Assembly: GCA_003990765.1 (NCBI GenBank)
Contig: RBNJ01000194.1
Span: 1-37,194, forward strand
Length of the DNA stretch: 37,194 nt
From: Jimgerdemannia flammicorona
Lineage: Eukaryota
Direction: 5' to 3'
Shown here: one piece after another, positions 2,663 to 32,416 of the stretch
Position numbering within the stretch: position 1 is the stretch's first letter
Layout: each line of letters begins with the position of its first letter
Position numbers and translations under genes: made by a program
The notes under the pieces: generated by a model
Seen by the model: only the letters and a program-made list of their open reading frames with translations
Told to the model about the DNA's origin: nothing
Database searches by the model: none

Positions 2663-3713
2663 GTATATACATATAAATAAACATGCTTCAAACTTGCTAT
2701 ATTGTATATAAATTCAATTACTTGAGTGCTATTTAAAATCTATTGATAAAATGTATAAAAAGGACTTAAAAAATTACTGTTTATTCCTTATATTGGTTTG
2801 GTCTTTAATAGGGCTGCTGAACTGGGACTTATGATTATAGCAGTATAGATTTTAATTTTCAGTATTGAAACAGATCATCACAATTTAGCTTGAAGTTCAA
2901 TATTGTAGAGAAATGATTATTTATAAAGGATTTGAGTATAAAAGGGCTCTCAGTTGATGAACCTAAGAACTACAATAAGAACTCCTTTACTACTATATAA
3001 ATATCAAACTTAATAGAATCTCAATTCATCTTTAAGAACCTTTTTCCTGAGCTTGAATACAACTGACAGTCTCTAGATGGACTTGCTTGATCAATCTTAT
3101 ACTGACACTAACTATAGTAATTAATAATATATCATTCTAATATTTGGAAACCCCTTATTACTTTTATGTCTTAGTTGGTATAAACTAGACAAATAACTAC
3201 ATATCATTTTTATTACTCTCTGCTAGTTAATAAAATCTAAAGGATCTGATTTTAAGTATCATAATATATTCAAGTAAATTTGAGCCCAATATTCTTAGGG
3301 CAATATATTATTCTATTATAAATATAATAAATCTAGTAATAGAACACTATAGAGATTTTTGAAAATTAAACAATCAAATCATTAATCTACTTTGATAAGA
3401 CTATTACTACATATATAAAAATAACTATATGAACTTAATTTATATTAAGTCTACCATAGAACTGAAAAATTACAGCACTATAAGCATTTTGAAACAAAAA
3501 TAAGATGAGAATATTTGGATAAAGAAGGAATTACCAATAAAATTTACTAATAATAATATATCAATTCTAATATAAGTATAAATACTACTTACTAAGAAGA
3601 TATTTCTGAACAAAGTCAGCAGGAATTAAATTCTAAGAAGTGAAAATTACTAGAAACTTCCCAAGAACTAAGGAAAAAATGAAAATATTAAAAGAGTAAA
3701 AGATTGTATATAG

Positions 3714-5419: not shown

Positions 5420-8400
5420 ATGGAAATGTATCCCCCCATATTCTATAGATTTACTACTGAAGAGTCAATTCTGACTTTTATTGAAGACTTTGAGCAATTT
5501 GCCACCATATGAGCTCTCACCATAGATGTACAATTAGCCCTTCTACCAGTCAGTCTCAGAGAACCTGCCAGAGATAAGTTCAATACAATTACTATTACTA
5601 ATACTGGTATAGCCAAACTTGCCAATATAAAGAACTTCCTCAGAACTATATATTATACTAAAGAGATCAAGCAAACTCTCAAAGATTAACTCAATACTAT
5701 CTGCCAGAGACTTAGTAAAGATCCCAACTCATTCTATATCCAAATTTGTCACCAGATTATCTTGGGTAGCTATGATAATACTCTCAAGGAACAGATAGCT
5801 GATTCAACCTTCCTAAAAGGAGTCCACTATGAAATTGCCCTAGCAATCTAGTCTACTCTAGCTGCTCTGACCCTTAATCAGAAAGTAATCTTTATATAGA
5901 GATATTAGACCACCAGACACCCTGCTGAACACTTAATAGAAAGAATAACTAACATTAAGATGAAGCCATCAAAACCAATCAGCATTATACCTACTATAGC
6001 CATCAACAGACAACTATCCCCACCTATTCCCAAGATGATCAGAGCTGATCCAGTGGAGGAACTCACCCAGCAGTTTGCCAAGATGACTGTATATCTTGGT
6101 GATATTGTTAGAGAAGTACAAAGTACCAATAGGAGACCAGAACAGAAGTTTGTAGCTACTATAGAGGAGTACACCATTACATACTTCAAATATAGAGAAG
6201 AAGGCCACTATATAAAGAATTACATGACTGAAACAAGATATAGAGCTCAACCAAGTGATGCTACTAGAACTAGAGAACAAATCAATATAGTAGTCATTGA
6301 GAAGATTAGTAATACTGATGATGAAGAATACTATAAGAAGTCTGAATTCTACCCTGTTACTAAAGGTACCATAATCTAGTCTAAGCTCTATGATAAGAAG
6401 GATAATAGTAAGCCAGTTAGAAGATCAAAAAAGACCTCAACTATCACTATTCAAAGTAAGACCCAATCTAAGGAGATTGATCAAGATATAGAGTTAGATG
6501 AAGCCACCTACTAAATAATTGAAGACACTACTCCAGTCTCAGGAGAAAGTGAAAGCAAGAAAGAATAGAAGCTACATAAGACTAAGATCCACCTGTATAA
6601 TATCTACAAGAATCTCAAGAAATAGAAGATCAATGCTACTTTTGGACAACTAGCAGAAGTCTCTATCTTCAGACAGTAGTTGAGAGTAAGACTTGCAACC
6701 ACTGTTAAGAACCAAGAATACAAGATTATAAAAGCTTACAATGTACAAGAAGATAAATAAGAAGACTCAGACAAAGAATCTGAAGATCAGTACAAGATCT
6801 TAGCTTATACTCAATATCAGATTGAAGATTGTATCTTTGATACTATCATTGATACCAGTACTGGAGAATGCTTCATAAGAAAGAAGGCAATTGACTGCCT
6901 AGGCTGGGATATTGAAGAATTTACCAAAATAGTCTATGTTATAGTAGATGATATATGAGCTACCCTCCTAGACAAGATCTGAGAAGTCTCTATCAAGATT
7001 GAAGGAGCTATAATTTCAGTAGATGTGATTGTTACAAGTATCACTAACTATGACATTATCATTGATAACCAATAGCTTTATAAGGCCAAGACTATCATTA
7101 ATCTTAATACCCAGAAAATGTAGATTAACTATAGAGGAAGAAAGGTACAAGTCTCTATCAATATCTATAAAGGAGTACTATCAGACATAGAGGAAGGAGA
7201 TGAAGAGAACACAGAAGTCTTCATACACTTAGTGTCTAAGAATAAGAGCAAGACAACTAAGCTCACAGATGAGTAGTAGTACAATAAGATCATCAATAAC
7301 TATATCCCTTAAAGAAGATGTCTCCATGGTGCTAAGATGTACTGCTCTGAAAACCTGAATGACTACTGGTCCTGCATCAGTGAAGTTAGAAAAATCCATC
7401 AATAAAGGTATGAGCAAGAAGCTGTTGAAGTAAAAAGAAAAGCCAAAGAAGATGACCAGTCCCCAGAGCTTTAAGCTGATAGTGATGATGAGGAGGAATA
7501 AGAATCAGACATCACTCTCAAGGTTAAGAAGTTTTACCTGAAGCCAAGATCCCTGAATACAAGACTGAAAGAACCATAGGAATAGACCTTATCAGCATCT
7601 AAGATGCTATCCTTAAACTACAGAATACTACTCTACTTGATACTGGAATTGGAGTCAAGTTACTAGAGAACTATGCTAAAATTATCAAGACCAGGAGTAG
7701 TCTAACCAAGAGCAAAATCTCAGTTAAAGGAAGAGTCATTGACCTTGATTACACTGGTGAGATCTTTCTTATAGTCAGGAATTACAACTCTACCACTCCA
7801 TTCAAAGTCAAGAAGTATGATAGAATTGGCCAGATGCTGATTCATGAAGTCAAGAAGCCTAAGATCACTGAAGCCATCAAACTTATCAAGACTAAGAGAG
7901 GAGAACAAGGCTTTGGATCTACTAAAAGAGAAGCCTATGCTACTACTAAGATTACTGAACTCAAGTACAAGACAGACAAGGATCAGAATAAGCACACATA
8001 TACTATTGGAGAAAACTTTTCTCTAGAAGAACAACTTCTCAAGATCCTATACCAGAATGAAGGAGTACTTGCCACAGACTTTAGAGACATCCACAATCAA
8101 GAACTCAAATACTACCATGAAGTTGATACTGGTGATACTAAGCCCATCTACCAGAAAGCCAGACCTATACCATCTATCTATAGAGAATAGCTGTAAGCAG
8201 AACTCAAGGAAATAGAAGAAGCTGGTATCATTAAGCAAGCTATCAGTCTCTGGGCTTCACATATTGTTCTTGTTCTAAAGAAAGAAAGCAAGTCTGGAGA
8301 GTTTGCTCTAAGACTCCATATTAATTATATGTATGTAGGAAGCTCAATATAATTACCAAGAAAGATAGACAGCCTTTGCTAAATATTCAAGAAATCCTTA

Positions 8401-9292
8401 TCACTCTTGGAAATAAAGCCAAATACTACATTACCTTGGATCTGTTCTCAGACTTCTATCAGATTGGTCTCACTCAAGATATCAGTAAAGTGAAAAATCA
8501 GCCTTCATCATATCTGATACCACCTATATCTACCTGTGAATTTCATTTAGAATATGCAATGCACCAGTAAGTTTTCACCAAATGATGAACAGAGTCTTCA
8601 GCAATGAGATTGAAAAATAGTTTTTTATCTATATTGATAATATAATTATCTTCAGCAACACTATATAGGAATATATCAACTATATACAGCTAGTCCTTAA
8701 GAAGCTTAAGGAGCATGACCTCTATATCAAGCTTAAGAAGTATAAGTTTGTAGTTCAAGAAATCACCTATTTAGGATACATCATTAACCAGACTAGAATT
8801 CATATAGACCCCATGAAGATTGAGGCTGTTGCAGTCTATCCAAGACCAAGAATAACTACAGAAGTTCATACCTTTCTTGGACTAGCTTCCTACTATAGAA
8901 GATTCATCAGAGGATACTCTAATATTATAGTAACTATCTATGAGCTACTGAAGAAGGAGACCAAATTTGAATGGACCAAGGAGCATCAAGAAACCTTTAA
9001 TGAACTTAAGACCAGATTGACCAAAGTACCTATTCTCAAAAGATCAGACTAGAATCTAGAGTTCATCCTGCAGACAGATACAAGTGCTATAGGACTTAGA
9101 GCAGTGCTAGCTCAGAAGAAAGATGGATATGAATATGTCATCTCTTATATAAGCCAAGGTATTTGTAGAGTAGAATAGAACTACAAGTCATATAAGCTTG
9201 AATGCTTAGCAGTAGTCTGGGCAGTAGATAAGTTCCACTACTATCTAGCCAAGAAATACTTCATTATTCAAACAGATCACTCTGCTCTTGCC
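5420..9292 (+). pseudogene. Family-B gag-pol pseudogene (capsid, Zn knuckle, aspartic protease, dUTPase, RT, partial RNase H)
   Basis: Capsid-like MEMYPPIF...TFIEDFEQFA; eroded CCHC ITYFKYREEGHYIKNY (~6176); protease IIDTST (DTG-type, ~6851); RT SLWASHIVLV, LDLFSDFYQI, YIDN (~8630), FLGLASYYRRFI; RNase H LQTDTS..GL.AVL and TDH. Confidence 0.9.
7520..7923 (+). pseudogene. dUTPase domain of family B, between protease and RT
   Basis: Five trimeric-dUTPase motifs: IGIDL, TRSSL, RVIDLDYTGEI, DRIGQML, RGEQGFGST. Confidence 0.9.
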
Positions 9293-10650
9293 AGAGAATT
9301 TCCTCTAAGAAATCTTCTTAAATATCTATGCCTTATTTCCCACTAGTAGTATGGGGAGAATAGACTAGCTTTCAGTTTTGCTATTTTTCTAGAGGGTCAG
9401 TATTCTTTTGTCTTGACTTGCTGAGTTCTTGATTTTATTTATAATAATTATAATAGTACTTAATGTTCAGAGGGGTAGTATGTAGTATGGAACTGATAGG
9501 TGCTAGAGTGTTCAGATTTTAGTTGTTTAAAGAATTATATTTTTGAAGTTAGTAGTATTCTAGAGATTAGTTTTAGATTTCTATATTACATTATGGATCA
9601 GATAACCTTTTAATTTGACAAGATATTCTGGATATTTCTTATGACCATATTTATTGAGAATTTGTTCAACTTCATATTTTTCTTAGTCATTGATAATGAT
9701 AGGTACAGGTGGTTTTGTAGTTCAGTTCAGGAATAGCTTGTTATTATTTTTATTATATTGCTTGAGATGTTGGATATTAAAGACTGAGTGAATCTTAATA
9801 GTATCTGATAGTGCTAATTTGTAGGAAGTTGGAGAGACTTGTGTAATAATTTCAAATGGTTCAATGAATTTGCTATTCAGTTTTGTTGAGGGTCTGTACT
9901 TGAGATTGTAACTCAGTATTCTCTGATATCTAGTAGGACTTTTTCTCTAATATCAAAAGTTTCTTCTTGATAGTACTGATTGACATACTATAACTATTGT
10001 TCTTGAGCTTAAAATAAATTATTGTTTGCAATCTGACTTAAATTGCACATTCAGAGCAGGAATTCTTCTACAGCTTTGATAGTAGAGAGTTCATCAATAG
10101 TTCTGATAAATATCAGAAAGATATTGAGATTTTGTCTGATATTAGTGAAAAAGGTGATCATTCTTAGAAAAGCTTATTTGCTATTATTATAGACAAACTT
10201 GACTGTGGTGAGATGTTCATGCCAATCATCTTGCCTATAGAAAACATAGTTCCTTAATATTTATTCTAGAGTTCAATTCATCCTTTCAGTTTGGCTGTCA
10301 GTTTCAGGGTAAAAGGCTATAGATAGTATAAGTTTTGTTCTAAGATATATGTATATGTAGAGCATTCCAAAAATGGCTGGTAAACTTTGAATCTCAGTTA
10401 CTAATAATGATCTTTGGAAGACCATGATAGCAGAAGATGTTGTCAAATAAGAATATAGTGATTTAAGGTACTATTGCAGTTATAGCAATAGATATAAAGT
10501 AGGCTTGTTTACTAAGATAGTTCATGAAGATAATAATTATATCTTTCCTATTCTTGATTCAAGGTAGTTGTACAATGAAGTCTATAGAGATTTATTCCCA
10601 ATTGATAGATAGTACTAGAATAGAGTAGAGTAGGTCAGATTTTGCTAGTC
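9293..10650 (-). mobile_element. Inverted family-A fragment (integrase core, chromodomain, post-chromo region)
   Basis: Reverse complement matches ~30855-32203 of the full-length copy; includes PETDSQTERMN and YEVEQILNK. Confidence 0.85.
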
Positions 10651-10831
10651 TTATCATAGAATAAATTATTACAGTATATGCTAATGATAAAGAAGCTCAA
10701 ACACTCTAAGAAATCCTAAATAGTAATGATATTAACAAGTACTCCCAATATCACCAATACAAACTAAGAGATAATACTATCTATTATAAGAATAGATTAT
10801 ATATTTCTAACAATTGAGATCTCTGAAGGAC
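10651..10831 (+). mobile_element. Short plus-strand family-A fragment (RH-IN linker), interrupted by the element-C LTR
   Basis: Matches ~30516-30695 (ANDKEAQ...LYISNN.DL.R) and stops exactly at the TGTAAC terminus of C. Confidence 0.8.
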
Positions 10832-11299
10832 TGTAACAATTCTAGTTTATTTAAGAGGAAGTAGCTTAATCTGGAAGTTCTGGTTAATCTAAAGTAGCTT
10901 AAAGAGATACTTAAAGGTTTAAGTGTTCTTGAAGAATTTCTGGGAGAAAATATTCTGAGCTTTATTCAGATAGAGAACAAGGATATTTATATATAATCTG
11001 AAAGAAAGATCTGAAAGAATCTTGAAAAGAAAGAGAAATGCCAAGAAATAGATTCTCAGTAAAGCTGACTAATATATACTATTCTACAATGTTCCAAAAG
11101 GTTTCATGACTAGCTAAGATAAGATACTTGGTACAAAGGAAAGACAAGAATGTTCTAGTAGTGTCTGGGTACTGAGAGAAGGTTTCTAAGCAAGTAGAAG
11201 GTGGCAGAACATAGTAGAATATTCAAGAAATGATAAGAAAAGATTAACTAAAAGACATGAAAATATACTAAGACTAAATATGACTGTAAAATTATTACA
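10832..11299 (-). repeat. Family-C 3' LTR (468 bp)
   Basis: Inverted termini TGTAACAATT / AATTATTACA, directly adjacent to a polypurine tract on the minus strand. Confidence 0.8.
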
Positions 11300-11312
11300 T
11301 CTCTTCCTTCTT
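11300..11312 (-). promoter_or_regulatory. Polypurine tract of element C
   Basis: Minus strand AAGAAGGAAGAGA immediately precedes TGTAAT. Confidence 0.8.
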
Positions 11313-14300
11313 AAGAACCAATATCCTCATTAAGTTCTTAGATAATACAAGACTAGATATACTTAATCAAAATTTCTCAAACTTATATTAGTACATTGGT
11401 AGGGATTGACCATCTTCATATAGAGCAGAGGGCCTATTACCAGACTAATCAACTGAGAGGGGTTCGAACTTAGCTAGTAGCTTCATTTTGGTGGACTTCT
11501 TATTCATTAAATATTCTGCTGGTTCTGGGGTTCCAAAGTAAACTTCTGATGCATAAGGCACTGATCATTGCTATAGATCATCAATAATCCAAGAAAGTCA
11601 CTATAGAAATTGGGCAATGCATTTTATCTTGAAGTCTTGAACTAGATCTTGAGGTTGACCAGTAGTTCCCAGGTAGCATCATATTCAGAGTAACCCATCT
11701 ACTTGACTAAGTATTCAGGATGGCAGTAGTGGATTCATTTGTCAAGAATTTTCTCAGCTTCATACTTGATATGATCTTCAATAATTACAGAGATAGATGG
11801 CTTAGGAATTTAACCAGAGTAGAGCAGTAACTAGTTTCAGGTCTTAAGGTGTGACATATGAAAGACTGGGTGTACTCTCATGGTTTCAGGTAACTTGAGG
11901 TGGTAGAAGAATGCAGAGACTTATTCAGTGATCTCAAAAAGTCCAATATACTTAGATTGGAACTTGTTCAAAGGACAGTTGACTTGAGATTATATCTTGA
12001 GGTTCTCAGTAGACAGTAGGACTTGATCTCCAACAATATAAGTGACATTATGGTATTTCTTGTCAGCATATTTGGCTTGATGCTATTGAGCCTTCTGAAG
12101 ATTCATGGTAGTAATCTTGAGTAGTTGGTCTATTTTATCTATAAGGTTCTTAGTGATAAAGACTTGTATTTGACTGCTTTTCTTAAAAGAGAATAGATTT
12201 GCAGGGGTCTTGGGATCTTGACTATGAAGTAATCAGAAAGGGGAAAGACCAGTAGATGATTGGATGGTATTGTTGTATGCAAACTCCACATAAGTCAGAT
12301 AGTGGTCCTAATCATCTTACTTATAAGAAATATAGTTTTTAAGCATTTGTTCTAGAGTTCTATTCATATGCTTGGTTTGTCCATCAGTTTGTAGGTGAAA
12401 GACAGTAGATATAGCTAATTGAATTCCCATGGTCTTGAAGAGAGTTTGCCAGAAGTGACTGATGAACTTTGGGTCACAATTACTGATAATTACTTATGGT
12501 AGACCATAGTGATAGAAGATAGACTTGAAGAAGATTCTTGCAATATTAGGTATAGTAGCATTAGTAGTAGTTGGTTCAGCAACCATAGTCTTGATCAGAC
12601 AGTCAATAAATATGATGATAGCATTAGTACCAGATTGAGTTTATGGTAGTTAAGTTACAAAGTCTATAGTAACTTGCTCAAATTTCTTAGTAGAAATTAG
12701 CAGTAGTTGTAGCAAACTGGCTAGTACTTAGTTGGTAGACTTATTGTACTAGTATAGATTACAGCTAGTAATATAGTTCTTGATTTCCTTGACTATGCTT
12801 GGTCAATAGTAGTGGCATTGAATGTTCTTGACAGTTTTCTCAATTTCCAGATGACTGACAAGAGGGAAATCATGGTGTTCTTGTAAAACCTTATAGTATA
12901 GATTCATGTTTTCAGGTAGATAGACTTAATCTTGATGATAGATTAGATTGTTCTCAACAGTATACATATATATCCTTGAGCTCATTCAAGAAAACTTTAG
13001 TGGCAACTATGTCTTCTTTGTAAGCTTGTTTGATTTGGTCTAGAAATTCTGATACCAAGGTGACTTGTATAATTATAGTGAGGTCAGGGTATCTTGATAA
13101 GGCATCTGATACTATAAGTATCTTGCCAGACTTATAGATGATTGTCAGATTGAAGGTTTGAAGCTTGAGGCTCTACTTGGCTTATAGATATAATAGAGTA
13201 GATTGGGTGTTGATATACTTAAAAGATTGATAATCAGTAATAACATTAAACTCAATACCTTCTAGATAGCATCACCAGTAGTCTAGTGTATGTATTATTA
13301 CCAGTAGTTCCTTCTTGTGAGTGGCTAGCTTTTGTTCAGCTGAGGTCAACTTGTAGGACTTAAAAGCAATAGAATGATGTCCTTTGCTATTATCTTATGA
13401 CAGGACTGCTCTAATGGCAAAATTCAATACATCAGTAGTGACTGTGAATTTTAAGCCTTGATCTGCATTATACAGGACTGGAGTTTGGGTCAGGCAGTTC
13501 TTGAGTTCTTGAAAAGCTTATTGATAGAAAAGGTCCCAGATGTAGAGTACATAGTGGTTTGAGTGTAGGGTCTTTCTCATAAGATTAGTCAGTAACTCAG
13601 CAATTCTAGAGAAGTTTCTGATAAAGCAGCAATAGTAGTCAGCTAGACCAAGGAAGGATCAGAGTTCTGTGAGGTTTGACAGAATGGACTATTCTTTAAT
13701 TACTTCTATCTTGTATAGGTCTACTTGAATTTCTTATGCAGAGATAATGTGGCCAAGATATTTGACTTATTCTTTGAAGAATTCACACTTCTTGAGCTTA
13801 GTGTAAAGCTTGTGTTTTTGTAGGATCTTTAGAACTATTTAAATGTATTTGAGGTGTTCTTCTTTAGTTGCACTAAATATCAGAATATTGTCAAGATATA
13901 CCAATAGGAAAATAAATAGTTGGTTCTTGAATATCTTATTCATTAGGGTCTGAAATGTGACAGGTGTATTAGTGAGATCAAATGCTAAGACCAAGAATTC
14001 ATAGAGTCCAAAAGGAGTCATAAATGTAGTCTTGGGAATATCTTCTAGCTTGATTCAGATCTGGTGATATCCTGACATAAGGTCTAACTTGGTGAAGTAC
14101 TTGGCATTCTTGAGAGTATCAAAGATTTGATCAATCAAGGGTAGCAGATAGTAGTTCTTGACAGTGAGTTTGTTGAGTACATAATAGTCTATATATATTT
14201 ATAGAGTACTATTCTTCTTCTTGATGAATAAGACTGGTGAGCTATAAGGATATTTGCTTGACTGGATAGCTCTTTATATAAGTAGTTCTTCTAGTTCCTT

Positions 14301-15066
14301 CTTGACTACTTCAATTTCAAGTAGCAATATGCAGTATATATTGTGGCATTGGTTATGTATAATGAACTTCGACTGCACGGCTCAATGTGCCACTTGGTGA
14401 AGCACGCGATGTATAACTGAAGGCATTGGTGACGTTTGCGGGTTGATGGTCACATGACAGGTCGTTTGATTCGTGCAGTAATTGATAACAGCGGGAAAAT
14501 GGAGGTTGATGGCTCGCTTGTCCATCTTGGTTAACTTGAAAGGTTCCTGGCGGTCATTTGGGTCTTTGGCAGTGGGTCGGTCTTTGGCGGTCTGGTATCC
14601 TTGGGTTCTTTAGCTATATTGCTGGGGTCTTGAATCTTGAATGGCGGTTGAATGGTGGCAGTCCGAATGGCAGTCTGAATGCGTGGCGGTCATGGTCTTG
14701 AATCCTTGGCTGGGTCTCGGGTCTCGAATGGCGGTCAGGTAACATTTTCTTTCCATGGCAAGAGAAAATTCTTTAACTCAAACTTCCGAGCAATCCGTTG
14801 CTTTAGATTGTTATCTTGTTTTCAGAATTATTCAGTCTCTTGGAGGCAGTGGTTTCTTTGTAATCCTTTTTACTTTTAAATACAAGCTGACTGAGGTTTA
14901 TTCACTCTAAGAATATGGGTTATTTATACAAGTTTGCTAGCTATGGGGGAGGGGGCGCAACTAAGGCTAAGGTATACTACGTTGTGGCAAACTTTGCTAT
15001 GCTATTGGCTTGTATGATGCGAGGTGCAGGCTATTGTTTACTATGGATTGGGTTATAGGAGATAGT

Positions 15067-15390
15067 AACGCTGGATTCAGATGAGCTGACAAAATGCTGA
15101 AAATGGTGGTACTGGGTAGCAACGCTGGATTCAGATGAGCTGACATGATACAATGATTGTTGCCAGAAGCGGTTGTGGAGGGTAGCAATGCTGGATTCGG
15201 ACCTGCTGACAAAATGCTGAAAACGGTGGTACTGGGTAGCAACGCTGGATTCGGATGAGCTGACATGATACAATGATTGTTGCCAGAAGTGGTTGTGGAG
15301 GGTGGCAATGCTGGATTCGGACCTGCTGACAAAATGCTGAAAACAGTGGTACTGGGTAGTAATGCTGGAAACGGACTTGCTGACAAAAGC
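15067..15390. repeat. Higher-order tandem repeat of alternating 54- and 66-bp units (120-bp period)
   Basis: Core AAYGCTGGAWWCRGAY..GCTGACA starts at 15067, 15121, 15187, 15241, 15307 and 15361. Confidence 0.95.
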
Positions 15391-15418
15391 TGGGTTCTCA
15401 CGGCTGATGGGTGGTACT

Positions 15419-16519
15419 CTAGAGGAAATAGTACCCTTTATTTGTGGCGGGCAAATCTTGCTGGGTTGTGATTTCTTCTTCATCATATCTCTCCTCAAAG
15501 GGGGGAAGTGCCGGCCAAGAGGTGAGGGGGTAGAAAAGTGGCCAGTCATCTTCAACAACATTTTCCAATCCCTGAACTGCTTGAATGCAGACAGAGGACT
15601 GGTAGACTCTCTGTTGCTCCTCTTCTTCTTCTGAAGACTTATCAGTTTCAGTGTCAGAGGGGGTTTCTTCAGGGGCAGGGCCTTGGAGTTCTTGGGCCTC
15701 CTCTTCAAAGACAGGAACTTCTTGGGCTTCTTCTTGATTCGGTTCCCAAATGATGAGGTGTGAATTGTGGCTGACAAGGTGGTGGGTGGTTGGGGTAGCT
15801 CCAATGGGTGTTTCTATGGTAATGGGCAGTCCTTCAAATATCTCCATAAGACTCATTAGGTGATCTTGATGGTTGTCTCGGAGTGGGGTGGTGTGGAAAC
15901 CTGGCTGAGTAGGTTCGGTTTGTTGGCTTCCTACGGCAATGCAGTTGCTGCCAATAGTGTTGGCTACTTCAGATTCTATCCAGTCAGTATCTTCAGTTGA
16001 AAGGCAGAAGAGGCTGCCAGCTGTTACTCCTTGCAAGTGTGCTATAGCCCAGAGAATATGGCGGAAGATTTGGTGGACATGGAGGGCTCTCTTGATTAGC
16101 TGGCTGGTGGTTAACATTTTGGCAATGAGGTCTTCCTGATCATCTTCTTGAGTCTCATTGTGAAGGCAGTGTCCGATTTCATAGTCATGCCAGAGGGTCA
16201 TTCGTTCAGTAGAGTCTTTGAGCTATTGGGTCATTATATACCGGTAGTTGATAAAGTATCCAAGGTCCTCGGTATAGAAGTTCAAGTGTTTGGAAGTATC
16301 AGGACGCCAGATGGCCTTCTTGATAGCTTCAAAGATCAGGGTCTTTGGGCCAGGCAAAGGGGTAGAGCAGCGGGAGGTCTGGTTGGATTGGCGAATGGGA
16401 GGTATTGTGTGATAGATACTTGGTTCTTTGGTGCCGATCCCTGAGGCGGAGTATGGTTCCTTAAATAACATGGTCTTCATTTTAGCTCGGATCATCTTGT
16501 CTTCTTTTGGGATGATCAC
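15419..16519 (-). pseudogene. Family-E LTR-internal ORF (up to 367 codons) with a single in-frame TAG; unknown protein with an acidic C-terminal half
   Basis: Track ORFs 16223..16519 and 15419..16201 are in the same frame, separated only by TAG (16223-16225) and 7 sense codons (MTQ*LKDSTERMTLW). The true start may be the ATG at 16495. Confidence 0.8.
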
Positions 16520-16733
16520 CTAATGGGTCAGACTGTCTATTTGATTGTCACGCCATTATATCATCTGATCTTAGCAGTCACTGGTACTCTGTTGTCAATT
16601 GCATATGTCACAATATATTTCTTGAGTAGTACTACTCCTGGGGTCAGTTCAATTTCATGATCAACTTCTTATGTAGGTGGTAGACCAGGTAGCTTGTCTG
16701 GAAAGACATTCTTGAATTCTTCTAGCATACTAT

Positions 16734-19700
16734 CACTTAATTAAAAGACTACTACCATTAAAAACTCCTACCCCAGCTTTAATTAGAAGGGCCAGACTCT
16801 CTATATTCTCACTAAGATACTGTCTTTTGCCAGTATCACTAGTTCATCAAGTACCTTCACCATTCCCATCTCTATAAAGATCATCAAGAAACTCTACTCT
16901 AAAACTAGACTCAGATAGTGAAGACAAATCAGACATGAGTTATCTTCAGAAATTCCATAGTACAGATGAAGATATCAAGGAATTCTTTGGAGAAATTGAA
17001 GTACAAGCAGCAGCCAAGCAGTGGAGTACCCAGAGAAAGCTCAGAATATTGTAAAATTACTCTTGAGAGATTCTGCTCTACAGAAGTATAACTAAGCAAA
17101 GCAAGTTGAAGAAGATATCTATAAAGTAGAACATATTAACCATCTTTGAGCAAATAGAGACTATGTGGATAGATATTATATTTATAAGACCTGGCTCCAC
17201 ACTCAGTTCAATGGTCTTGAGTACTAATAGAAAGTACAAGAAGCTTTGACCTATATGAGATAAGCTGCCAATAAAACTCTAAAAGATTTCTACTATCAGA
17301 TTCAAGCTCAGATAATCAAGACAAACTTACAACCTATAGCTCTGGTCTCAATCATCTTCCTTAATGAAATATTTCCAGAGCTTTAAAAATGATTAGGATA
17401 GGCTATTGAAGTATTGAGCAACAAGTTGCTAAAACACAAGGATACTGGAAAGTAGACTACAGACTGCTCTAGTAAGTATAAGAATATCAAGAACTAGCTT
17501 AAGCTGAAATCTTAAGAACTTATAGAACTACTACAGAATAAGAGAATACCTACTTAAGAGTCTAATTGGTCAGCTATGAGAACAGATCCCTACTCCCAAT
17601 TCTGACTCAATATAGACAACAGCAGCAGCCTCTACTAAGAATTTAAGAAGACTCTATAACAATGCTTACTAAACAAATAAAAGACCTAGCCATTGTAGTT
17701 ACTCAGTTAAAGAACTAAGGAAGAAGATAACAATATTATCATTAAGATAATAGACCAGACTACCAGCAGCAAGATAACAGGAGTTCTACTCAGGCCCTAC
17801 CAGTTATAATTACAAATTCATCAGTAATAGGTTTCTATATCCTAACTTGCTTTAACTGTGAAAACTAAGATCACATCAAGAGGTTTTGTCTAAAGAAATA
17901 AACTCCATCCAATAATAGAAATATCAACCTTATTCAAGTGGATGAAGAGATCTGAGAAATAGAAAAAAAAGTCACTTGGCTTTATATTTAAGATGATACC
18001 TATTTATACTATAAAGCCTTTATCTCTAAGGTAACTTGGAATACAGTACCTGCACAGACCAGAGGATGAGAAAGACCTTTAAGGACCCCACTTTTACTAC
18101 TATTGCTAGTAACTATATCTACAGGCAAACATCCAATATATGACTATTCTTCCTTAGATACATACTCCTTAGAAGAAGATAAGAGAGTCAGAAGAGATAC
18201 TTCTGAACCAGAAGCTGGTCCATCAAGAGTATTAAGAGTATCTCTCTGTCTGACCTTGAAGAAGATGAGTATATGAGTATAGAGTTCTCAGTGATGAAAT
18301 ATTTAATAAAAATAAATAAAAGATCTAGATATTGAAGGAGCAATAAGCCCCATAAAGCAGCATCACTTTGGGAATATCTCTGTACTCAGAATACAGATCT
18401 CACAGTTAAATAAGTTCTTAAGAATATACCAGAAGTTAGGCAAAAATTCCTTAAGAAAGCCAAAGAGGATATTAAGAGAATCTCTGTCTAAGAATTACAT
18501 ATACTAGAGTCTAGCACTATTTATGCAATTTATGAATATCAGTGTCAAGAATATTAATCTACAAGGCTAGCTAATAAAAAAGTATAGTAAAAATATCAGA
18601 ATCCTTATTGATACTGAAGTTGTAGTTTGCATTATTATCTAGTAAATACTAAAAAGAATCAGGTAGAGAATTGATGAAGAAACCAAAGTAAGAGTTATCA
18701 TAGTAGATAGATCAGTATATACTCTCTTTGGATTAGTCAAATATATACCTATTCAAGTTGAAAAGGTCTGCCTCAATATATCTTAAGCTGTTATAATCCT
18801 GTAATCTCATATGATCTGATTTTGAAAACTAACTAATTGTACCAAGTTAAAGCTAATATAGACAAAAAAACAACTCCTGGTCTTCACCTTTCATAGACAA
18901 AAGCACAAGGTACCAATTGAGTCAAAAGGATCAAGGAGAGCAATACAGGCCTTTGAGATAGAATTATAAGGATATAGAGATATACTCACTAGTAATTTTG
19001 ATATCTTTAGAGATTCTGAAGGTAGTCAAGAAGACCTTTTTATCAGAGTTATTAATACTGAAAGCCTGGAAGCAAGCATTGATTGAGCTATTAATAAAGA
19101 AGTAGTACTCAAATTTGCAAAACTATCTATATAACCACTTTTACTTCTAAAAGAAAATTGAATTATATGAGCCTTCTGTCTAAGTATATGTATGTGAATA
19201 CTACAATTATTTACACTCACCAAGAGATTATTGTAGCAACTGCTGAATCCTTAATCTCAAAAAGGTTCTAATATCAGTAATTAAAGACAAGGATGAGTTA
19301 AAACAAGTCTCAGTTTTCAGATAAATACAATTATCCACTCCAAAGACTTTTAAGAAGATTTATAAAGAAGAGCAAAAGATCCTCTCTCACCAATCTTTAA
19401 AGACCCTCACAATTGAAAGAAATAACAATAGTATCTATACTATTACCTGAGCTCTCTAGATCATTTTACCTATTTATAATAAATACTGAAAAAGATATCT
19501 AATAAGTAAGGGAATCAAATAGTAGAATGAGAAATTTATCAAGTAAGAATACTGTGATTGTAGAAAGACTGTTACCTATTACTGATACAAATATTGAAGT
19601 ATCTACCTTAGTAAAGATATCTATAAGAACTAAGTCAAGAGGAAGGATCTTATCTTATAAGAACCTTGAATCTGCTGAACTTGTCAGAAATGTAAAAAGA

Positions 19701-20775: not shown

Positions 20776-23676
20776 AGACTAATAGTATCAGAGAGAAAGA
20801 CTCAGCAATCAAAGCTATTTATATTAATCTTAAGTACAGACTCTCTATAAAACTAAATAATAAGTTCATCAGATCATTTAAAGTTATTGTACAAGTTTCT
20901 CTAATATCTTATAAACTAGTGCTACTAGACACTATCAAGATTCACCTAGTCTTTAATATTTAATGTCTTAAATAATATAATGAAAATAATGATAAACTAT
21001 TCCCAAATTGAACTATAAAACTACCTATATCTATCATTATTAATAACTATAAGGAATATAAAGTTGAATAAATTCTTAACAAATATAGTCACAAAAACTA
21101 TACAGAATATCTTATTAAATAAAAAGATTATCTGATCTATAATGCTATATAGAAACCCAGAGCAAACTCAGAATACTACCAACTTAGTTTAAGAATATGA
21201 TTCTTTGAATAACTAAAATACTCTAATACTTACTATTGCTATACTATATATACATATTATTTCTCTAAATATTATTAAAAGCACTCTTATAATTACTATG
21301 AATATCTTACTATACTCTTAGCAAATTAAGATAAAAGAAATACTAACTCTCTAGAAAATAGCAAAACTGAAAGCCAGCCTATTCTATCTATACTATTGGT
21401 GGAAAATAAAGTATAGATATTTAAGAAGATTTCTTAAAGGAAATTCCTCAGCAGTAAATAATATCAGAATCACTTCTGGTATATAGTATCAAATATATAA
21501 CTCTTTAATATATAAATTTAGTATTTTAGACAACTATACTATAAGTATATCACTTTTTTTAAAAAAAAAGATATTATTAGACTTTTGACTATTTAAATAG
21601 AGTAATAACACTAGATAAAATTAGAAGAACTTGATGAGAATGTCAAAAACTAAGAAGGGGAGAGTTGTAAGCATACAATCTCTAAGCTACTAAAATTACA
21701 CATCACTCTTAGAATAAATCTAAAAATTATATATAAGATTATAAAGCTAAGTCAAACTGAAGTCACAGATTACAAAACTGAGTCAATTCAAAGTTATAGA
21801 ACACAAGATATATAAAAACAGAACCTTACTAATTAAGACTAAAAGCATATAAACTGAGTATATAGTATATCAAAATAGAGAACTATAACAAATAAATCAT
21901 AACTCTTAAATATATATCCAGTTATGACTACTGAAGTTTACAACTGTATCTATATTAATATTTAGAATACTATTGTCAACTGAATCACAGTGCCTCTGTC
22001 TCTTATGAATATTTATAGCTTAACACTTCTCTACTTTATAGAAGTCTGATAGAATACCCTGAACTACTTAGTGAGGTTTACTGAATTGGACAAATCTCAA
22101 GCTACATACTATTAGATCAGCCATCTCCTGAAAGATATAGTTAATCACTACTATAATATAGATATTACTGAAATATCTCAATACCAGAAACTTATTATAT
22201 ATAAATATCAAAAACTCTTTTATAAATATACCATCTTTATTTTCTATCTCTAAATCACTACTACTAAAATGATTACTACTCTGACCTATAGCCAAATTAA
22301 TGATATAGTATAAGAATTCAACTAGAAATATATTAAGTATACACAAATTACAGATAGATCTTTTTTATACTCAGATGATTACATTCTATAAATATCTTAA
22401 GTAGAATATACTATGTAATAAATCTAGTTCAATAATAATAAAGCAAAAGACAATAATATCTCTGATATTAAAATAACTTCTAACTAAGAATTTCTGCCAA
22501 CTCTGATTACTCTACCAATCTTACTAATGAACTTACAATAGTTTATAATATTTATAAGACCTATTAGAATAATAACTACTGGTATAAATACTAATTTGCA
22601 TTCATACTTAACTATTTTAACTATAATAAAGAAATAAGAAAACACAATCTGTATCTTCAGACAACTCTTAAGATAGAACTAACAACTCTATTTTCTGAGT
22701 ATAAGTGATATAAAGAATAACTATTAGCCTATTATAATCTGCAATATATAAAACTGTAATCTACTAAAAGTATACTAATAGTAAAATTTAATAAAAGCAA
22801 AGATGATATATCTCTTCTCTGCCCACCAACACTATATCTAGCATATGAAATAGACAATACTATCCTGTAGAATAATAACTTTATTTCAACATATTATTAT
22901 ATGAATAAATAGAGAGATATAATCTAAGAACTACTCTTTCTAGATGACTATTTTATTAGAAATAATATCATTAATAGTGATCTTATTGAAAAGTATCCAG
23001 ATAGTGTCTAAAATCTATAAATAGCTTAGCAGTTATTTGTATAATTAGATTAGTCTATTTTATATAACTGTACTCTAACTTATCAGTCAGTTGATTTTTT
23101 GATATATTAGTTCATACTTTATACTATATGACTACATTCTAATTTATCAAATACTAAAGTACTGTATCTATATTTAGCCTAGTCTAGATAGCCTCTTATT
23201 AGTATAAATACTCTCTTTCTCAGATCTCAGAAACTCAGATAGAAATTGAGATAAAAATCAGATAAATACTTCTCTATATAAATATTTTTTCATATACTAC
23301 TCTTAGTATTAGTAAATAAATTTATTTAATAATTTACAAACTACTCTTATGTAAACTCATACTATATTAGATCTCACTTCTAACTAGATCCAGAAATTTT
23401 CTAATTAGATATTATTTATAGTAATTATCAATTCAACTAAGCTAGTCTTAATTTCTTGAACTTTCTAAAATAAGAAAAATTCTAAACATTCAAAATAAAT
23501 CTAAGAAAAAACTTTAGTAGAGACATCAACTCAATCTTGAAATCAATAAATATAGAGAATATACTTTATATGAAATTGATCTTAATCTTAAGAAAATAAT
23601 CTTTCAGAATATCTAGAACTTTTTGAAAACTCTTTCAGAACTATATAATAGTACTCTAACAAAGTACTCTTTTATA
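20776..23676 (+). mobile_element. 3' part of a heavily mutated family-A copy (end of integrase, chromodomain, PPT, 3' LTR)
   Basis: Collinear with ~31540-34487; PPT AAGAAGGGGAGAG at 21652-21664. Confidence 0.85.
21666..23676 (+). repeat. Family-A 3' LTR, strongly AT-shifted copy (2011 bp)
   Basis: TGTAAGC start after the PPT; ends TTTATA (eroded CTTACA). Contains a frameshifted remnant of the LTR ORF at 21924-23011. Confidence 0.85.
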
Positions 23677-23913
23677 TCTTGTGATCTAGAGAACTTACAT
23701 AATGAGGCTTATTTAACATCTCCTCTCAGATCTATACTATAGTATTGTCTTTTATCTTAATATTCTTGACCCAATTCACATCATTCTCACTCTTTCTATC
23801 TCTAAAATGTGCCTCTTCTATTAAGATATATCTTTCTCTATATGAAGATATATCTAGATATACTCTATATAGCCTCTCTATTATACTTCTTCTTTCTTGC
23901 TCACCTAGCTCTG

Positions 23914-25954
23914 TGTAAGCACACAACCTCTAAGCCACAGAAATCACATATCACTCTCTGAACAAGCCACCGAAATCATATGCAATAGCTGAACAAATCT
24001 GGAAATCACCTGTATGATCACAAAGCTGAGTCAATCCAAAGTCACAGAATACAAGACTTACACAAACAGAATCTTACCAATCAGGACCAAATATATATAT
24101 ACCAACCACCGAGACATGCCGAAATAGAGAACCAAAACAAACAATAACCACAACTTCTGAATATATACAAATATGACCACTGAGATCTACAACTGCATTC
24201 ATGCTAACATTTGGAATACCATTGTCAACTGAGCCACACCCTCTCTGCCCCTCATGAATATCTATAGCTTAGCACCCCTCTACTTTGTGGAAGCCCAATG
24301 GAATGCCCTGAACATGCTTAGCAAGGCCCACTGAATCAGATAAATCTCAAGCTACTATCAGATTGGATGCCTCCTAGAAGACATGGTCGAACACTACCAT
24401 GACATGGATATTACCCAGATGTCTCAACATTAGAAACTCATTGCCTGTAAACATCGAGAACTTTTTTATGAGTACAGCACCTTTATTCTCTATCTCTGAG
24501 TTACTACTGCTAAAATGGTTACTACTCTATCCTATGGCCAAATCAATGATATGATACAAGAACTCAACCACAAGTACCTTAAGTATGTTCAGACCACAGA
24601 CAGAACCTTCCCACACCCCGATGACCATATCCTGCAAATGCCTCAAGTTGGATATACTATGAAGGATGTCTACAATATAATTTGATTTGATAAAGACAAA
24701 GCAGAAGAAAATGATCTCTCTGACACCAACATAACCTTGAGCCAAGGATTCCTGCCAACCTTGATCACTCCACCAACCTTGCCAATAAACTTACAACAGT
24801 TCATAACTACCTATGAGATCTATTGAGACAATGACCACTAGTATGAATACTAACCTACATTCACCCCCAATTACTTCAACTATAATGAAGAGACTGGAGA
24901 ACACAACCTGTACCTTCAGACAACTCTTGAGATTGAACCAACCACTCCATCACCTGAGTATGAGTGACATGAATTACAGCCACTAGCTTACTACAACCCT
25001 GTGATTCATAGTGCTATAACCTATAGAAGATATGCAGATAGTGAATTCGATGAAAGTGAAGATGATGCACTTCTCCTTTGCCCACCAACATCTTATCCAG
25101 TATATAAGATGAATGATGCTATTCTGTGGGACAGTGATGAAGTCCCAATGTATTACTACCTCAGTGAATAAGGAGAATTAATCTGTGAATAACTTTTCCT
25201 AGATGACTACTTCATCAGAGATAATGCCATTGATGGTGATATCATCAAAGACTACTCAGACAGCATCTAAATCTTAAATAGTTTAGCAGTTATAGTATAG
25301 TTAGATTAGCCTTATACAATGTGACTGTAAACTAACTCAGCAGTCAGATGATCTCCTAACATGTTAGGTCACCCTTATATACATGACTGCATTCCGACTC
25401 AGCAAAGCACTAAGTGCTACATCTATATCTAGTATAGTCTAGATAGCCCCTTACTAGTATAAATACCCCCTCTTCCAGACCTCAGAATCTTAGACTTGAA
25501 TATTTGAACAATCTAAACACAACTCCTGAATACTTCCCTACAATATCCCTTCACACAACTACTCCTAGTATAGCAATATTATAAATCATAAATAAACCTA
25601 TTTAATAACCCATAACTCACTCTTAAGTAAATCTGCTCCCTGTTAGGTCCCACTTCTAACCCTGTCACAAAAATTCCTAATTGAGTATTGTCTGCAGTGA
25701 TATACTGATTCAACTAAGCTGGTCTTAGTTTCTTGAACTTCCTGAAATATGAAAAATCCTGAACCTCCAGAACTAGTCCAAAAAAGGACTTTGGTTGAGA
25801 CATTAATCCAATCTTGAAATCAATAAGCATAGAGGATGTACTTTATATAAAATTGATCTTGACTATAAGAAAACAGTCTTCCCGAATATCCAGAACTTCC
25901 AGAAAACCCTTCCAGAACTATGTAACAGTTATTCTAAAAAGCAACTCTTTTACA
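23914..25954 (+). repeat. Family-A 5' LTR (2041 bp)
   Basis: Direct repeat of 32418-34487; TATAAATA at 25458-25465 and AATAAA at 25591-25596. Confidence 0.95.
24173..25270 (+). pseudogene. Family-A LTR-internal ORF (366 codons), 5' LTR copy
   Basis: ATG 24173 to TAA 25270 is 1098 nt, the same length as the 3' LTR copy; stops are transition-type only. Confidence 0.8.
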
Positions 25955-25957
25955 ACT

Positions 25958-25972
25958 TGGTAGTAGTGGTTT
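25958..25972 (+). promoter_or_regulatory. Putative primer-binding site of family A
   Basis: TGGTAGTAGTGG 3 nt after the 5' LTR. It resembles a TGGTAGC-type initiator-Met PBS after C>T decay; the tRNA identity is an inference. Confidence 0.6.
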
Positions 25973-25982
25973 ACAATCTAAT

Positions 25983-32403: not shown

Positions 32404-32416
32404 AAGAAGGGGAGAG
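32404..32416 (+). promoter_or_regulatory. Polypurine tract of family A
   Basis: AAGAAGGGGAGAG, 1 nt before the 3' LTR. Confidence 0.9.

Follow-up and report, generated by a model that had tools for sequence, protein, structure and literature searches.

The long LTRs of the three element types (A, B, and E) found in the window, a stretch of 37,194 nucleotides that was analysed as a whole, probably each carry a complete sense-strand gene embedded in U3, which encodes a protein of a previously unnamed family, is accessory to the element and is kept in solo LTRs. The location of the open reading frame (ORF) inside the LTRs of A and B and inside the solo LTR of E is confirmed, and is known from this window alone. 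A previous sequence-only reading had proposed an accessory protein encoded in the LTRs of three Ty3/Gypsy families. As a whole, its observation is partly confirmed and its interpretation partly supported. Of the interpretation, what finds support is its structural half, namely a sense gene family in the U3 of long LTRs that is kept by the solo E.

Element A spans 23914-34487. It is a complete Gypsy/chromovirus whose LTRs measure 2.0 kb. The 5' LTR (23914-25954, plus strand, 2041 bp, TGTAAG...TTACA) and the 3' LTR (32418-34487, plus strand, 2070 bp) are 86.5% identical and are flanked by the target-site duplication CTCTG (23909-23913 and 34488-34492). A polypurine tract, AAGAAGGGGAGAG (32404-32416, plus strand), ends one base short of the 3' LTR, and two bases past the 5' LTR lies the primer-binding-site-like sequence TTGGTAGTAGTGG (25957-25969, plus strand), a candidate by its TTGG and its position. 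The Pfam scan for domain assignment covered the stop-to-stop ORFs of at least 45 aa in the window, 231 out of 233 together and the remaining two, which are pieces of the E ORF, separately. In the internal region of A (25955-32417, plus strand) the matches on stop-to-stop ORFs comprised dUTPase (27912-28241), reverse transcriptase (RVT_1, 29331-29909), RNase H (RT_RNaseH_2, 29913-30242), SH3_Tf2-1 (31588-31740), and Chromo (31744-31917). Each LTR contains an ORF of 366 codons on the plus strand, at 24173-25270 in the 5' copy (12 internal stops, 78% identical to the 3' copy) and at 32706-33803 in the 3' copy (8 internal stops, 288 bp past the LTR start). An older, more decayed A-type LTR (21666-23681, plus strand, 71-72% identical) follows an A-type pol 3' end and retains an ORF fragment (22116-22250) that matches the A profile with E=2.5e-16.

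The two B LTRs, copy 1 (1090-2657, plus strand, ~1568 bp) and copy 2 (3714-5310, plus strand, ~1597 bp, TGTAAT...CTACA), are 81.5% identical. Six bases past copy 2 a PBS-like TTGGTG precedes the B internal region with dUTPase (7603-8187), RT (8669-9049), and RNase H (9179-9343) domains; the element is truncated near 9343. The pol sequences of A and B are 30-40% identical in three tblastx segments. Counted from a Met-Pro start and including the stop, the B ORFs comprise 284 codons in copy 1 (1343-2194, plus strand) and 288 codons in copy 2 (3972-4835, plus strand), both with internal stops.

E is a solo LTR of 2271 bp on the minus strand (14342-16612), with termini TGTGACA...GCCACA as read from the sequence. 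It is flanked by ATATAT upstream (16613-16618) and downstream (14336-14341), a target-site duplication of 5 or 6 bp, ambiguous in the AT repeat. The insertion splits the minus-strand Gypsy pol of another element, of which RVT_1 (13842-14198) and the PR/RT-linker peptide (16640-16720) lie on the two sides. Soil-metagenome contigs from three runs depart from the window exactly at 14342 into one common continuation, which begins with TTTTGGGGG (element strand), as the PBS side would. The E ORF (15419-16405, minus strand) has 329 codons including the stop when aligned with its intact relatives P0001, P0004, and P0008. Between its stop and the TATA box lie three tandem 120-bp repeats (15051-15410, minus strand; period 120, 2.6 copies, 93% matches), whose position in U3 is enhancer-like. 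The box itself, TATAAATA, is located at 14921-14928 and an AATAAA signal follows ~19 nt past it, at 14897-14902 (both minus strand). The gene is thus left behind in a solo LTR, as had been proposed. With regard to the three proposed Ty3/Gypsy families, the assignment holds for A by its domains and for B by RT and RNase H, and E is a solo LTR without an internal region in the window. The ORFs do lie inside the LTRs, but the positions previously given for the LTRs are those of the ORFs, and the LTRs are longer, as the full extent of E illustrates.

The identification as LTRs rests on the direct repeats of A flanking gag-pol domains, on one B copy directly preceding dUTPase-RT-RNase H, on TG...CA termini in A and E and the corresponding ends of B copy 2, and on the duplications at A and E. 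In all three types the LTRs measure 1.6-2.3 kb and hold the ORF in the 5' half on the sense strand, starting 200-290 bp inside the LTR and ending 190-490 bp short of TATAAATA. The proposed order of ORF, TATAAATA, and AATAAA was found in A, B, and E alike (in B, TATAAATA at 5070-5077 and AATAAA at 5097-5102, plus strand); the U3/R/U5 borders were drawn from motifs alone. Upstream of the start codon, TATAAAA occurs at ~90 bp in both B copies, TATTTAA at ~60 bp in E, and CCAAT plus TATATATATA at ~80 bp in A, with TGAGTCA repeats farther upstream, TATA-like boxes being frequent by chance in DNA of 32-38% GC.

In all five stretches the frame of the ORF is the one with the fewest stops, which agrees with the claim of one sense ORF per long LTR. 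Counting the terminal stop, E has 2 stops in this frame versus 18 and 25 in the others; the two A copies have 13 and 9 versus 19/42 and 19/39, and the two B copies 14 and 18 versus 18/35 and 24/32. The internal stops thus amount to 1 in E and to 8-17 per ORF in A and B. BLASTP aligned the E protein with that of B copy 1 over 201 residues at 26% identity (E=4.5e-12), and with that of B copy 2 at E=1.1e-08. The 31-residue block and the YEIG motif noted in the sequence-only reading fall within the 201-residue alignment. By their sequences, the E and B proteins are clearly homologous. The LTR DNA of A, B, and E, as previously stated, showed no similarity by blastn (best E 0.048-0.45, matches of at most 24 bp). 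The gene is old relative to the elements that carry it, as shown for E and B, which have it in common despite unalignable LTR DNA and a pol identity of no more than 30-40% between A and B, the two families with pol in the window.

A first search for relatives of E returned 3 of 329 candidate proteins at E<=0.01, with six members in the P0001 cluster. P0001, P0004, and P0008 are open across the E stop, where they have Gln, and have Met at the ATA of E. A subsequent family profile search among 1.84 billion representatives yielded 13 proteins within E<=0.001, of which 7 were within <=1e-10. Uninterrupted predicted relatives of 214-342 aa include P0010, P0011, and P0012, and at least four lineages that have diverged from one another (P0004, P0010, P0011/P0012, and P0009) have uninterrupted proteins. 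Intact copies of the gene are thereby shown in other data sets. The Met-Pro start (16405 in E, 1343 and 3972 in B) is common to the E relatives, B, P0011, P0012, P0019, and P0020, and the C-terminal ...LN(I/F)LL to B, P0010, and P0013. With the conserved methionine of this start taken as the true one, E and B comprise ~284-329 codons, and not the 340-367 first estimated. The distant members keep both of the most conserved motifs, YEIG and A-K/R-K/R-I-H/Y-Q-I-F-R-H. Hence the hallmarks of a conserved protein-coding gene were found: a frame that is open in relatives, a start and a stop that are kept, and proteins that stay more alike across lineages than the DNA does. Protein similarity that outlives LTR DNA similarity, together with open divergent relatives, points to selection on the protein in propagating lineages.

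The gene product of ~285-365 residues is predicted to consist of a helical N-terminal domain of ~130-190 residues and, behind it, a disordered tail that is acidic and studded with aromatic residues. In the AF2 model, most of residues 11-150 reached a pLDDT of 70-94, in an entirely helical region, and most of residues 231-324 remained <50. Searches for a described domain or fold gave no match. Pfam returned nothing for E, and with 12 family members it gave no E-value better than 0.013, the matches being to unrelated families that each occurred in one member. A sequence profile search of the PDB yielded no match at E<=10, Foldseek against the PDB none at E<=0.001 (best 0.43), and a VIA-align fold comparison with 48,161 chains reached a best Z of 3.1, with none at 5 or above. 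The ESM Atlas, queried with P0004, gave nothing usable, and of 55 pattern matches in metagenome contigs scanned with a single protein none was confirmed. To judge from these comparisons, a protein without recognisable domain or fold is a previously unnamed family, and as such a new one to characterise.

All five window copies (E, two of A, and two of B) are broken, so the window contains no functional copy. They are decayed by CpG-type transitions and stops, and E has in addition lost its ATG. Its start codon is ATA, where alignment with P0001, P0004, and P0008 shows ATG, and the single internal TAG (16225-16223) corresponds to Gln in these relatives. At 16403 all covering contigs from the three soil-metagenome runs have T>C. 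The contigs of four DNA runs that were aligned to the window are relatives of it only. Among the changes listed for E-type copies in run X1, 121 of 132 were transitions. Protein identity among E-type copies is ~77-79%, and their divergence looks more like neutral decay than purifying selection. A subset of 21 differences in the E ORF is distributed over codon positions 1/2/3 as 5/6/10, which is not significant. Ascomycete-type RIP was considered as the source of the decay and rejected, as the signature is CpG loss. Within the E LTR, the block that holds TATAAATA (14828-14945) had the highest contig depth and is flanked on either side by loose ends in other variants of the LTR. In these variants, seen in metagenome contigs, the TATA block is common and the upstream sequence different.

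Whether A belongs to the same family was addressed by several comparisons. The kinship proposed across A, B, and E stands for E and B; for A, BLASTP against E/B was not significant (best E 0.5) and the profiles are suggestive. It may be that the gene is common to E, B, and the database relatives only, and that the A ORF is unrelated, having been acquired independently or being fortuitous, with a likeness in the YQIG/...LS block that arose by chance between helical sequences. We give this reading a minor, still appreciable, share of the probability. Consistent with it, a shallow-profile hhalign of E/B versus A gave E=0.26 at a probability of 0.24%, and the deeper one, with the E/B-family profile, a probability of only 10%. 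In a six-frame search of the window with an HMM built without window sequences, the A ORFs reached 1.1 and -2.3 bits (i-E 0.075 and 0.83). The reciprocal two-sequence A profile was not significant and did not part the family from decoys, among which its members ranked (E 0.29-1.8). Against it stands that the deeper hhalign covered 117 collinear columns at E=0.0032 and paired the two most conserved family motifs. Its score of 30.2 lies 6.6 sd above those obtained with shuffled columns, none of which reached it in 150 rounds (mean 14.3, sd 2.4, max 23.3), and the reversed control scored 14.9. The profile-profile check suggested along with the sequence-only reading was accordingly favourable in its E-value and shuffles, and unfavourable in its probability and reciprocal search. 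Furthermore, the two A ORFs were the best non-E/B matches in the window, in register, and resemble those of E and B in position, orientation, size, and an acidic aromatic tail. The A frame is also conserved and open in P0009, an intact A relative with 60% identity across the C-terminal 69% and an end that falls on the same residues. This partial protein is the one A-family relative, and a database search seeded with it returned P0009 itself and nothing else. A model of the A protein (pLDDT 33.8) was too poor for fold comparison. On balance, we favour the view that A carries a more diverged version of the E/B gene.

Three other explanations concern the nature of the ORF itself. It could be a fossil, i.e., an ancestral 3' ORF or a captured host fragment that came to lie passively in U3 (e.g., by an upstream shift of the PPT). 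The five broken window copies, the neutral-looking, transition-dominated divergence within the E type, and the missing match to known domains or folds in Pfam, PDB, Foldseek, and VIA-align would fit this idea, as would the LTR variants with a common TATA block and other upstream sequence, which indicate that U3 content, possibly including the ORF, is exchangeable. However, a passive frame of ~325 codons would not remain open, yet it is uninterrupted in at least four divergent lineages; start and motifs are conserved, the C-terminal end is the same within the B type and within A/P0009, and protein similarity persists where that of LTR DNA has vanished. We therefore regard a fossil as unlikely. 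An even smaller probability, in our view a very slight one, falls to a separate small mobile element inserted into the LTRs. An ORF with an upstream TATA-like box does resemble a self-contained unit, and the U3 upstream of the TATA block differs among LTR variants, but a repeat search of the window showed the ORF bounded by no repeat family except the LTR copies themselves, and its relative placement and its orientation are the same across three LTR types without DNA similarity. Moreover, the ORF lies at one and the same site in both A LTRs and must have been part of the LTR before A transposed. That the frames are open by chance in non-coding LTR DNA, for which nothing speaks except the stops in A and B, is refuted for E and B by their BLASTP alignment and the 13 database relatives, has the depletion of stops in one frame only against it, and is negligible overall. 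Identity of the ORF with gag was likewise rejected, a separate zinc-knuckle gag region being present in the internal parts. An accessory gene within U3 thus remains the preferred explanation.

Such a gene would lie between the PPT and the promoter. In the established scheme of LTR replication, reverse transcription duplicates U3 content to both element ends; the gene would accordingly be copied to both ends of each new insertion and be retained by a solo LTR. Its expression could be achieved in two ways. The LTR might act as a small stand-alone transcription unit, in which a TATA-like box lies 60-90 bp ahead of the ATG and the AATAAA of the LTR itself serves as terminator. Alternatively, a 3' subgenomic RNA of the element might be the template from which the ORF is translated. 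The product would then act in trans on all copies. Composition and analogy, on which the functional assignment rests, tentatively suggest a nuclear protein that regulates the LTR promoter and is built in the manner of foamy-virus Tas, with a binding domain and an acidic activation tail. A role in countering host silencing ranks next and appears less likely still. Taken further, the LTR itself could be a gene in a fungal chromovirus clade, with promoter, ORF, and terminator, a trans-acting regulator as product, and solo LTRs that keep expressing it, a proposal we consider possible and rather doubtful.

Among known systems, the closest parallel in layout is the superantigen gene sag of mouse mammary tumour virus (MMTV), an ORF in the U3 of the viral LTR. 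Like the gene described here, sag is a whole sense ORF of ~320 codons inside the U3 of an unusually long LTR, is present at both provirus ends and is kept by endogenous copies. It differs in its retroviral carrier and vertebrate immune system, whereas here the carrier is a Ty3/Gypsy chromovirus (A) in a fungus-like genome. Sag is a membrane glycoprotein, whereas the protein studied here is modelled as a helical domain with an acidic disordered tail; neither E nor 12 relatives matched any Pfam family, that of Sag included, above threshold. Foamy-virus Tas/Bel1 and Bet and lentiviral Nef are encoded by 3' accessory ORFs that overlap U3 and start upstream of the LTR. Theirs overlap the LTR in part, whereas here the whole ORF is inside it. 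No sequence likeness to Tas/Bel1, Bet, or Nef was found by Pfam scans and the PDB profile search. Tas, which serves an internal promoter as well, combines a DNA-binding part with an acidic activation part, and the modelled helical N-domain and acidic C-terminal tail would give a Tas-like layout.

Ty3/Gypsy LTRs are treated as non-coding control regions and masked by annotation pipelines, and solo LTRs pass for inert scars. If the proposed reading is true, gag and pol are joined in these elements by a third gene, whose dose is doubled per insertion and which survives the recombination that deletes the remainder of the element. It would be an independent parallel, outside vertebrate retroviruses, to U3 coding of the Sag/Tas/Nef type, and a candidate for mutual regulation between TE-rich fungal genomes and their elements. 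Should solo LTRs express the gene, thousands of "dead" LTRs would constitute a dispersed multigene family.

Additional genes in related elements have been described, as far as the accessible parts of the sources go. Plant LTR retrotransposons have aORFs (Ogre, Retand/Tat, antisense ORFs), mostly of unknown function (PMC7264820), where brtn of Boty in Botrytis is also cited as an additional ORF, and CERV of C. elegans Cer1 is an extra gene in a Ty3/Gypsy element (PMC10309623). Like the LTR gene, they are lineage-specific genes besides gag and pol in Ty3/Gypsy elements; according to these parts of the sources they sit either in the internal part of the element, ahead of gag or between pol and the 3' LTR, or in antisense, whereas the gene here is inside the LTR and sense. 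In the searched passages of PMC7264820, no wording that places an ORF inside an LTR occurred. Similarly, no LTR-internal ORF in fungal Gypsy elements was found in the accessible text of open-access papers and preprints, including PMC10787394, PMC12037069, and PMC3601003. Within the accessible part of this literature, no description was found of an accessory gene wholly inside the LTR of a non-retroviral LTR retrotransposon, and the novelty assumed earlier is not contradicted there. Fungal chromoviruses bearing a dUTPase were reported by Novikova et al. (2010, PMC2864245), as far as its accessible sections go, and A and B resemble them in having the dUTPase before RT, A also in its Tf2-type integrase SH3 and chromodomain. 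The LTRs given in those sections measure a few hundred bp (SM-Tcn1, 440 bp) versus 1.6-2.3 kb here, and the legend of Figure 3 marks, for some fungal element, an 'add. ORF' of unknown function. With 13 database matches, the protein family described here is small.

The proteins encoded by the LTR types E and B belong to a conserved gene family carried in the putative U3 of long LTRs, and for these two types the membership is certain. The sense ORFs lie at 15419–16405 (minus strand) in E and at 1343–2194 and 3972–4835 (plus strand) in the two B copies. BLASTP aligned the E protein with that of B copy 1 over 201 residues (26% identity, E = 4.5e-12) and with that of B copy 2 at E = 1.1e-08. The alignment matched the Met-Pro starts, IFEAIKKAI with IFQNIRRAI, YEIG with YEIE, and SLMEIFEGPPI with GLISVFQGPSI; the 31-residue block and the YEIG/YEIE pairing pointed out in the sequence-only reading thus fall inside the 201 residues. 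The accompanying claim that the LTRs lack DNA similarity was also borne out (best E = 0.048 across LTR pairs, matches of at most 24 bp). The pol regions of A and B were 30–40% identical in the three segments aligned by tblastx.

A family profile comprising E, B, and the relatives of E was searched against 1.84 billion representative proteins, resulting in 13 matches at E ≤ 0.001, seven at ≤1e-10, and four at ≤1e-30. Among these database proteins were the B-type P0010 and P0013, two more types (P0011 and P0012), and the distant members P0017, P0018, P0020, and P0021. The motifs Y-E/Y-I/M-G and A-x-R/K-I/V-Y/H-Q/K-I/L-F-R/I-H were kept in the distant members, and uninterrupted predicted proteins of 214–342 amino acids were found in several lineages. 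The persistence of protein similarity beyond that of the DNA, the conserved start and end points, and the uninterrupted copies jointly demonstrate a real gene that is maintained in propagating lineages.

The sequence-only reading had included A (ORFs 24173–25270 and 32706–33803, plus strand) in the same family. Profile–profile comparison sustained this three-way homology only partly: E and B are joined by BLASTP, but A aligned with a 12-sequence family profile in hhalign at E = 0.0032 (117 collinear columns) with a probability of only 10%, and the reciprocal two-sequence A profile did not lift family members (E 0.29–1.8) above decoy ORFs. BLASTP of A against E and B was not significant, and hhalign against a shallow family profile gave E = 0.26. 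The 12-sequence alignment paired YYQIG of A with YEIG of the family and IACKYQELF with ALRAHQIFRH. At 30.2, it scored above each of 150 column shuffles (mean 14.3, sd 2.4, max 23.3) of the A alignment, which scored 14.9 when reversed. When an HMM lacking window sequences was run against the six-frame window, the best matches after E and B were both A frames, in register (i-E 0.075 and 0.83); the sole further match had an i-E of 2.8. The model of the A protein (pLDDT 33.8) was too poor for fold comparison. Taken by itself, the A frame is coding-like in sequence: the database protein P0009, uninterrupted over 247 residues, was 60% identical to the C-terminal 69% of the frame with the same end residues, and an older A LTR retains a fragment of the ORF. 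We favor homology of the A ORF to the E/B family, with some reservation; if it fails, A would still carry a U3 gene of its own.

The A repeats are LTRs by every structural criterion readable in the sequence. Self-comparison revealed repeats of 2041 and 2070 bp (86.5% identical) that start with TGTAAG and finish with TTACA, and the element is flanked by CTCTG on either side. A single base separates the purine run AAGAAGGGGAGAG from the 3' repeat, and TTGGTAGTAGTGG starts two bases 3' of the 5' repeat. Between the repeats, Pfam detected dUTPase, RT, RNase H, a Tf2-type integrase SH3 domain, and a chromodomain. B copy 2 starts with TGTAAT and ends with CTACA, followed by TTGGTG and then dUTPase-RT-RNase H. 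In both elements, the dUTPase lies upstream of RT (B 7603–8187, A 27912–28241; Pfam E 2.4e-18 and 4.1e-18), and in B it is an uninterrupted stretch of 195 codons. The positions previously reported as LTRs proved to be the bounds of the reading frames.

E occupies 14342–16612 (2271 bp) on the minus strand, starting with TGTGACA and ending with GCCACA. It is a solo LTR, given its TG..CA ends, the ATATAT on both flanks (a duplication of 5 or 6 bp, ambiguous within an AT repeat), and its interruption of a foreign pol frame, with the protease-RT linker at 16640–16720 and RT at 13842–14198. Relatives with 90–95% identity were present on contigs from four DNA runs, most of which were soil metagenomes. 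In three runs, contigs diverged from the window at 14342–14351, all into one common continuation beginning with TTTTGGGGG on the element strand, as expected where a full-length element continues into its PBS; this independently supports the LTR status of E.

In each LTR, one sense frame was depleted of stops compared to the other two. Including the terminal stop, the ORF frame of E had 2 stops (other frames 18 and 25), those of the A 5' and 3' copies 13 (19 and 42) and 9 (19 and 39), and those of B copies 1 and 2 14 (18 and 35) and 18 (24 and 32). A search with the E frame matched three proteins among 329 candidates (E 3e-122 to 4e-42), whose clusters have 6, 1, and 1 members. The E start codon is ATA in the window (16405–16403) and Met in aligned relatives, and an internal TAG (16225–16223) is Gln in them; the base restoring ATG at 16403 was present in all covering contigs of three runs. 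Since both lesions are absent in relatives, the intact gene has ~325 codons and the window copy of E is lightly damaged.

Of the 132 differences from the window listed for metagenome relatives in run X1, one of the four DNA runs, 121 were transitions, and A or T was found more often on the window side. The CpG observed/expected ratio was 0.46 in E (14340–16611) and 0–0.13 in the A and B LTRs (1087–5311, 21666–25956, and 32418–34488), with no TpA enrichment in the LTR stretches of any type. The window copies show the ordinary decay of methylated repeats; ascomycete-type RIP was ruled out as its cause by this CpG deamination signature with TpA not enriched. E (47% GC) is the youngest insert. Individual gene copies decay neutrally, and those in the window are dead.

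All three LTR types have one common layout: LTR start, 200–290 bp, the ORF, a spacer of 190–490 bp, TATAAATA, and AATAAA. The spacer of E contains three 120-bp tandem repeats. TATAAATA precedes AATAAA by ~19–20 nt in E and B and by ~125 nt in A, and a further 200–560 bp separate AATAAA from the LTR end. The proposed U3 location holds in that the ORF lies upstream of TATAAATA and AATAAA in all three types, but it is conditional on TATAAATA being the element promoter. The highest contig depth was found in a block around the E TATA box and AATAAA (14828–14945), which in several runs has different neighboring sequence on either side (loose ends at 14945, 14891, and 14828). LTR variants thus seem to have a common core promoter but different U3 or U5, which would fit a conserved core promoter with exchangeable U3. 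A second open frame of 260 codons (15031–15813, minus strand) overlaps both the 120-bp repeats and, in a different frame, the acidic-tail portion of the E ORF. It is lysine/serine-rich, as expected from a shifted frame of a GAA-rich stretch, has no Pfam match, and is probably not coding.

In the 3' LTR, the ORF is located within the 3' UTR of the full-length RNA, over 6 kb downstream of the cap, and would therefore need an RNA of its own. TATAAAA is found ~90 bp 5' of the Met-Pro codon in both B copies and TATTTAA ~60 bp 5' of the start in E. In A, CCAAT and TATATATATA lie ~95 and ~80 bp 5' of the start codon, and farther upstream there is one TGAGTCA in the 5' copy and two in the 3' copy. The TATA-like box of each type is plausibly spaced from the start codon, but as such boxes are common by chance in AT-rich DNA, they are only a lead; if real, each LTR, solo LTRs included, would be a small gene terminating at its own AATAAA. 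Alternatively, expression of the ORF might involve a subgenomic or spliced transcript, a strategy of complex retroviruses.

No Pfam family matched the E protein, and the 12 family members hit four unrelated families, one member each (best E 0.013). A PDB sequence search with the family profile gave no match at E ≤ 10, and no usable cluster was obtained from the ESM Atlas for the family protein P0004. The AF2 model of P0004 from a 12-row alignment (mean pLDDT 64.7) had all-helical blocks of pLDDT 70–94 across most of residues 11–150, including one 40-residue helix, and pLDDT <50 over most of 231–324. Foldseek with this model found nothing at E ≤ 0.001 (best 0.43). The best Z of VIA-align among 48,161 chains was 3.1, which is below the chance level of helical models, so the fold is not to be taken as new.

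The family proteins and A have an acidic tail with conserved aromatic or hydrophobic clusters (E, EEEEE...DDWPLFYPLTSWP; B types, LISF..D and LN(I/F)LL; A, YFIRDD...YPDSI). Many transcriptional activators, including foamy-virus Tas, consist of a folded binding or oligomerizing domain and an acidic tail. The tandem repeats of E are located just upstream of the TATA box, a position expected for response elements. On this build and these repeats, regulation of the LTR promoter in trans is the leading, albeit tentative, candidate for the role of the protein; a factor countering host silencing comes second and seems rather unlikely.

Accessory genes encoded in U3 have precedents in retroviruses. 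The whole ORF of MMTV sag lies in U3, like the present gene, and the arrangement of foamy-virus and lentivirus genes overlapping U3 is comparable; judged by sequence, the protein belongs to none of these families. In the open-access papers and preprints searched, no fungal Gypsy element with an ORF inside its LTR was found, and matches to "LTR ORF" referred to MMTV or applied the term to pol ORFs. In the available portions of two papers, extra ORFs of Ty3/Gypsy elements are either antisense or part of the internal region (PMC7264820, PMC10309623). The accessible part of Novikova et al. (2010) describes fungal chromoviruses that carry a dUTPase, as A and B do, and a figure with an "add. ORF" of unknown function (PMC2864245), which could bear on the novelty of the LTR ORF family. 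The gene family inside U3 is real and conserved, apparently undescribed, and probably also carried by A.

The 37-kb window consists of nested, decayed LTR retrotransposons of 24–41% GC, with 47–50% GC in one younger-looking insert and at the right end. It was mapped by self-comparison and Pfam scans of stop-to-stop ORFs of at least 45 amino acids (231 of 233 in the main scan; the remaining two, pieces of the E ORF, were scanned apart). The complete element A, supported by both, spans 23914–34487 (plus strand); 20825–23681 contains the 3' end of an older A-type element together with its LTR, and 27–937 the tail of a further A LTR, directly preceded by a run of 27 A at the window start (1–27). 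B LTR copy 1 (1090–2657) and copy 2 (3714–5310) are separated by ~1.06 kb of 26–28% GC (2658–3713), in which neither ORF nor domain match was found. This stretch may be what is left of an internal region after its deletion, in which case both copies would be LTRs of a gutted element preceding the longer one or sharing an LTR with it.

The B internal region following copy 2 breaks off near 9343, and A-like pol remnants occupy ~9294 to 17300 on the minus strand, E being inserted into one of them. At 9294–9343, the plus-strand B RNase H ends abruptly where a minus-strand A-like integrase/chromodomain remnant starts (9294–10652, 79.8% identical to A 30852–32201). As no LTR lies between the two remnants, the junction is due to a deletion, to recombination, or to the assembly. 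At the right end (36000–37194), GC rises to 50%, and open frames of 110–138 codons at 36062–36451 and 36685–37098 have no Pfam match; this part is possibly non-repeat host sequence. Furthermore, a 190-bp direct repeat was found at 35012–35201 and 35505–35694.
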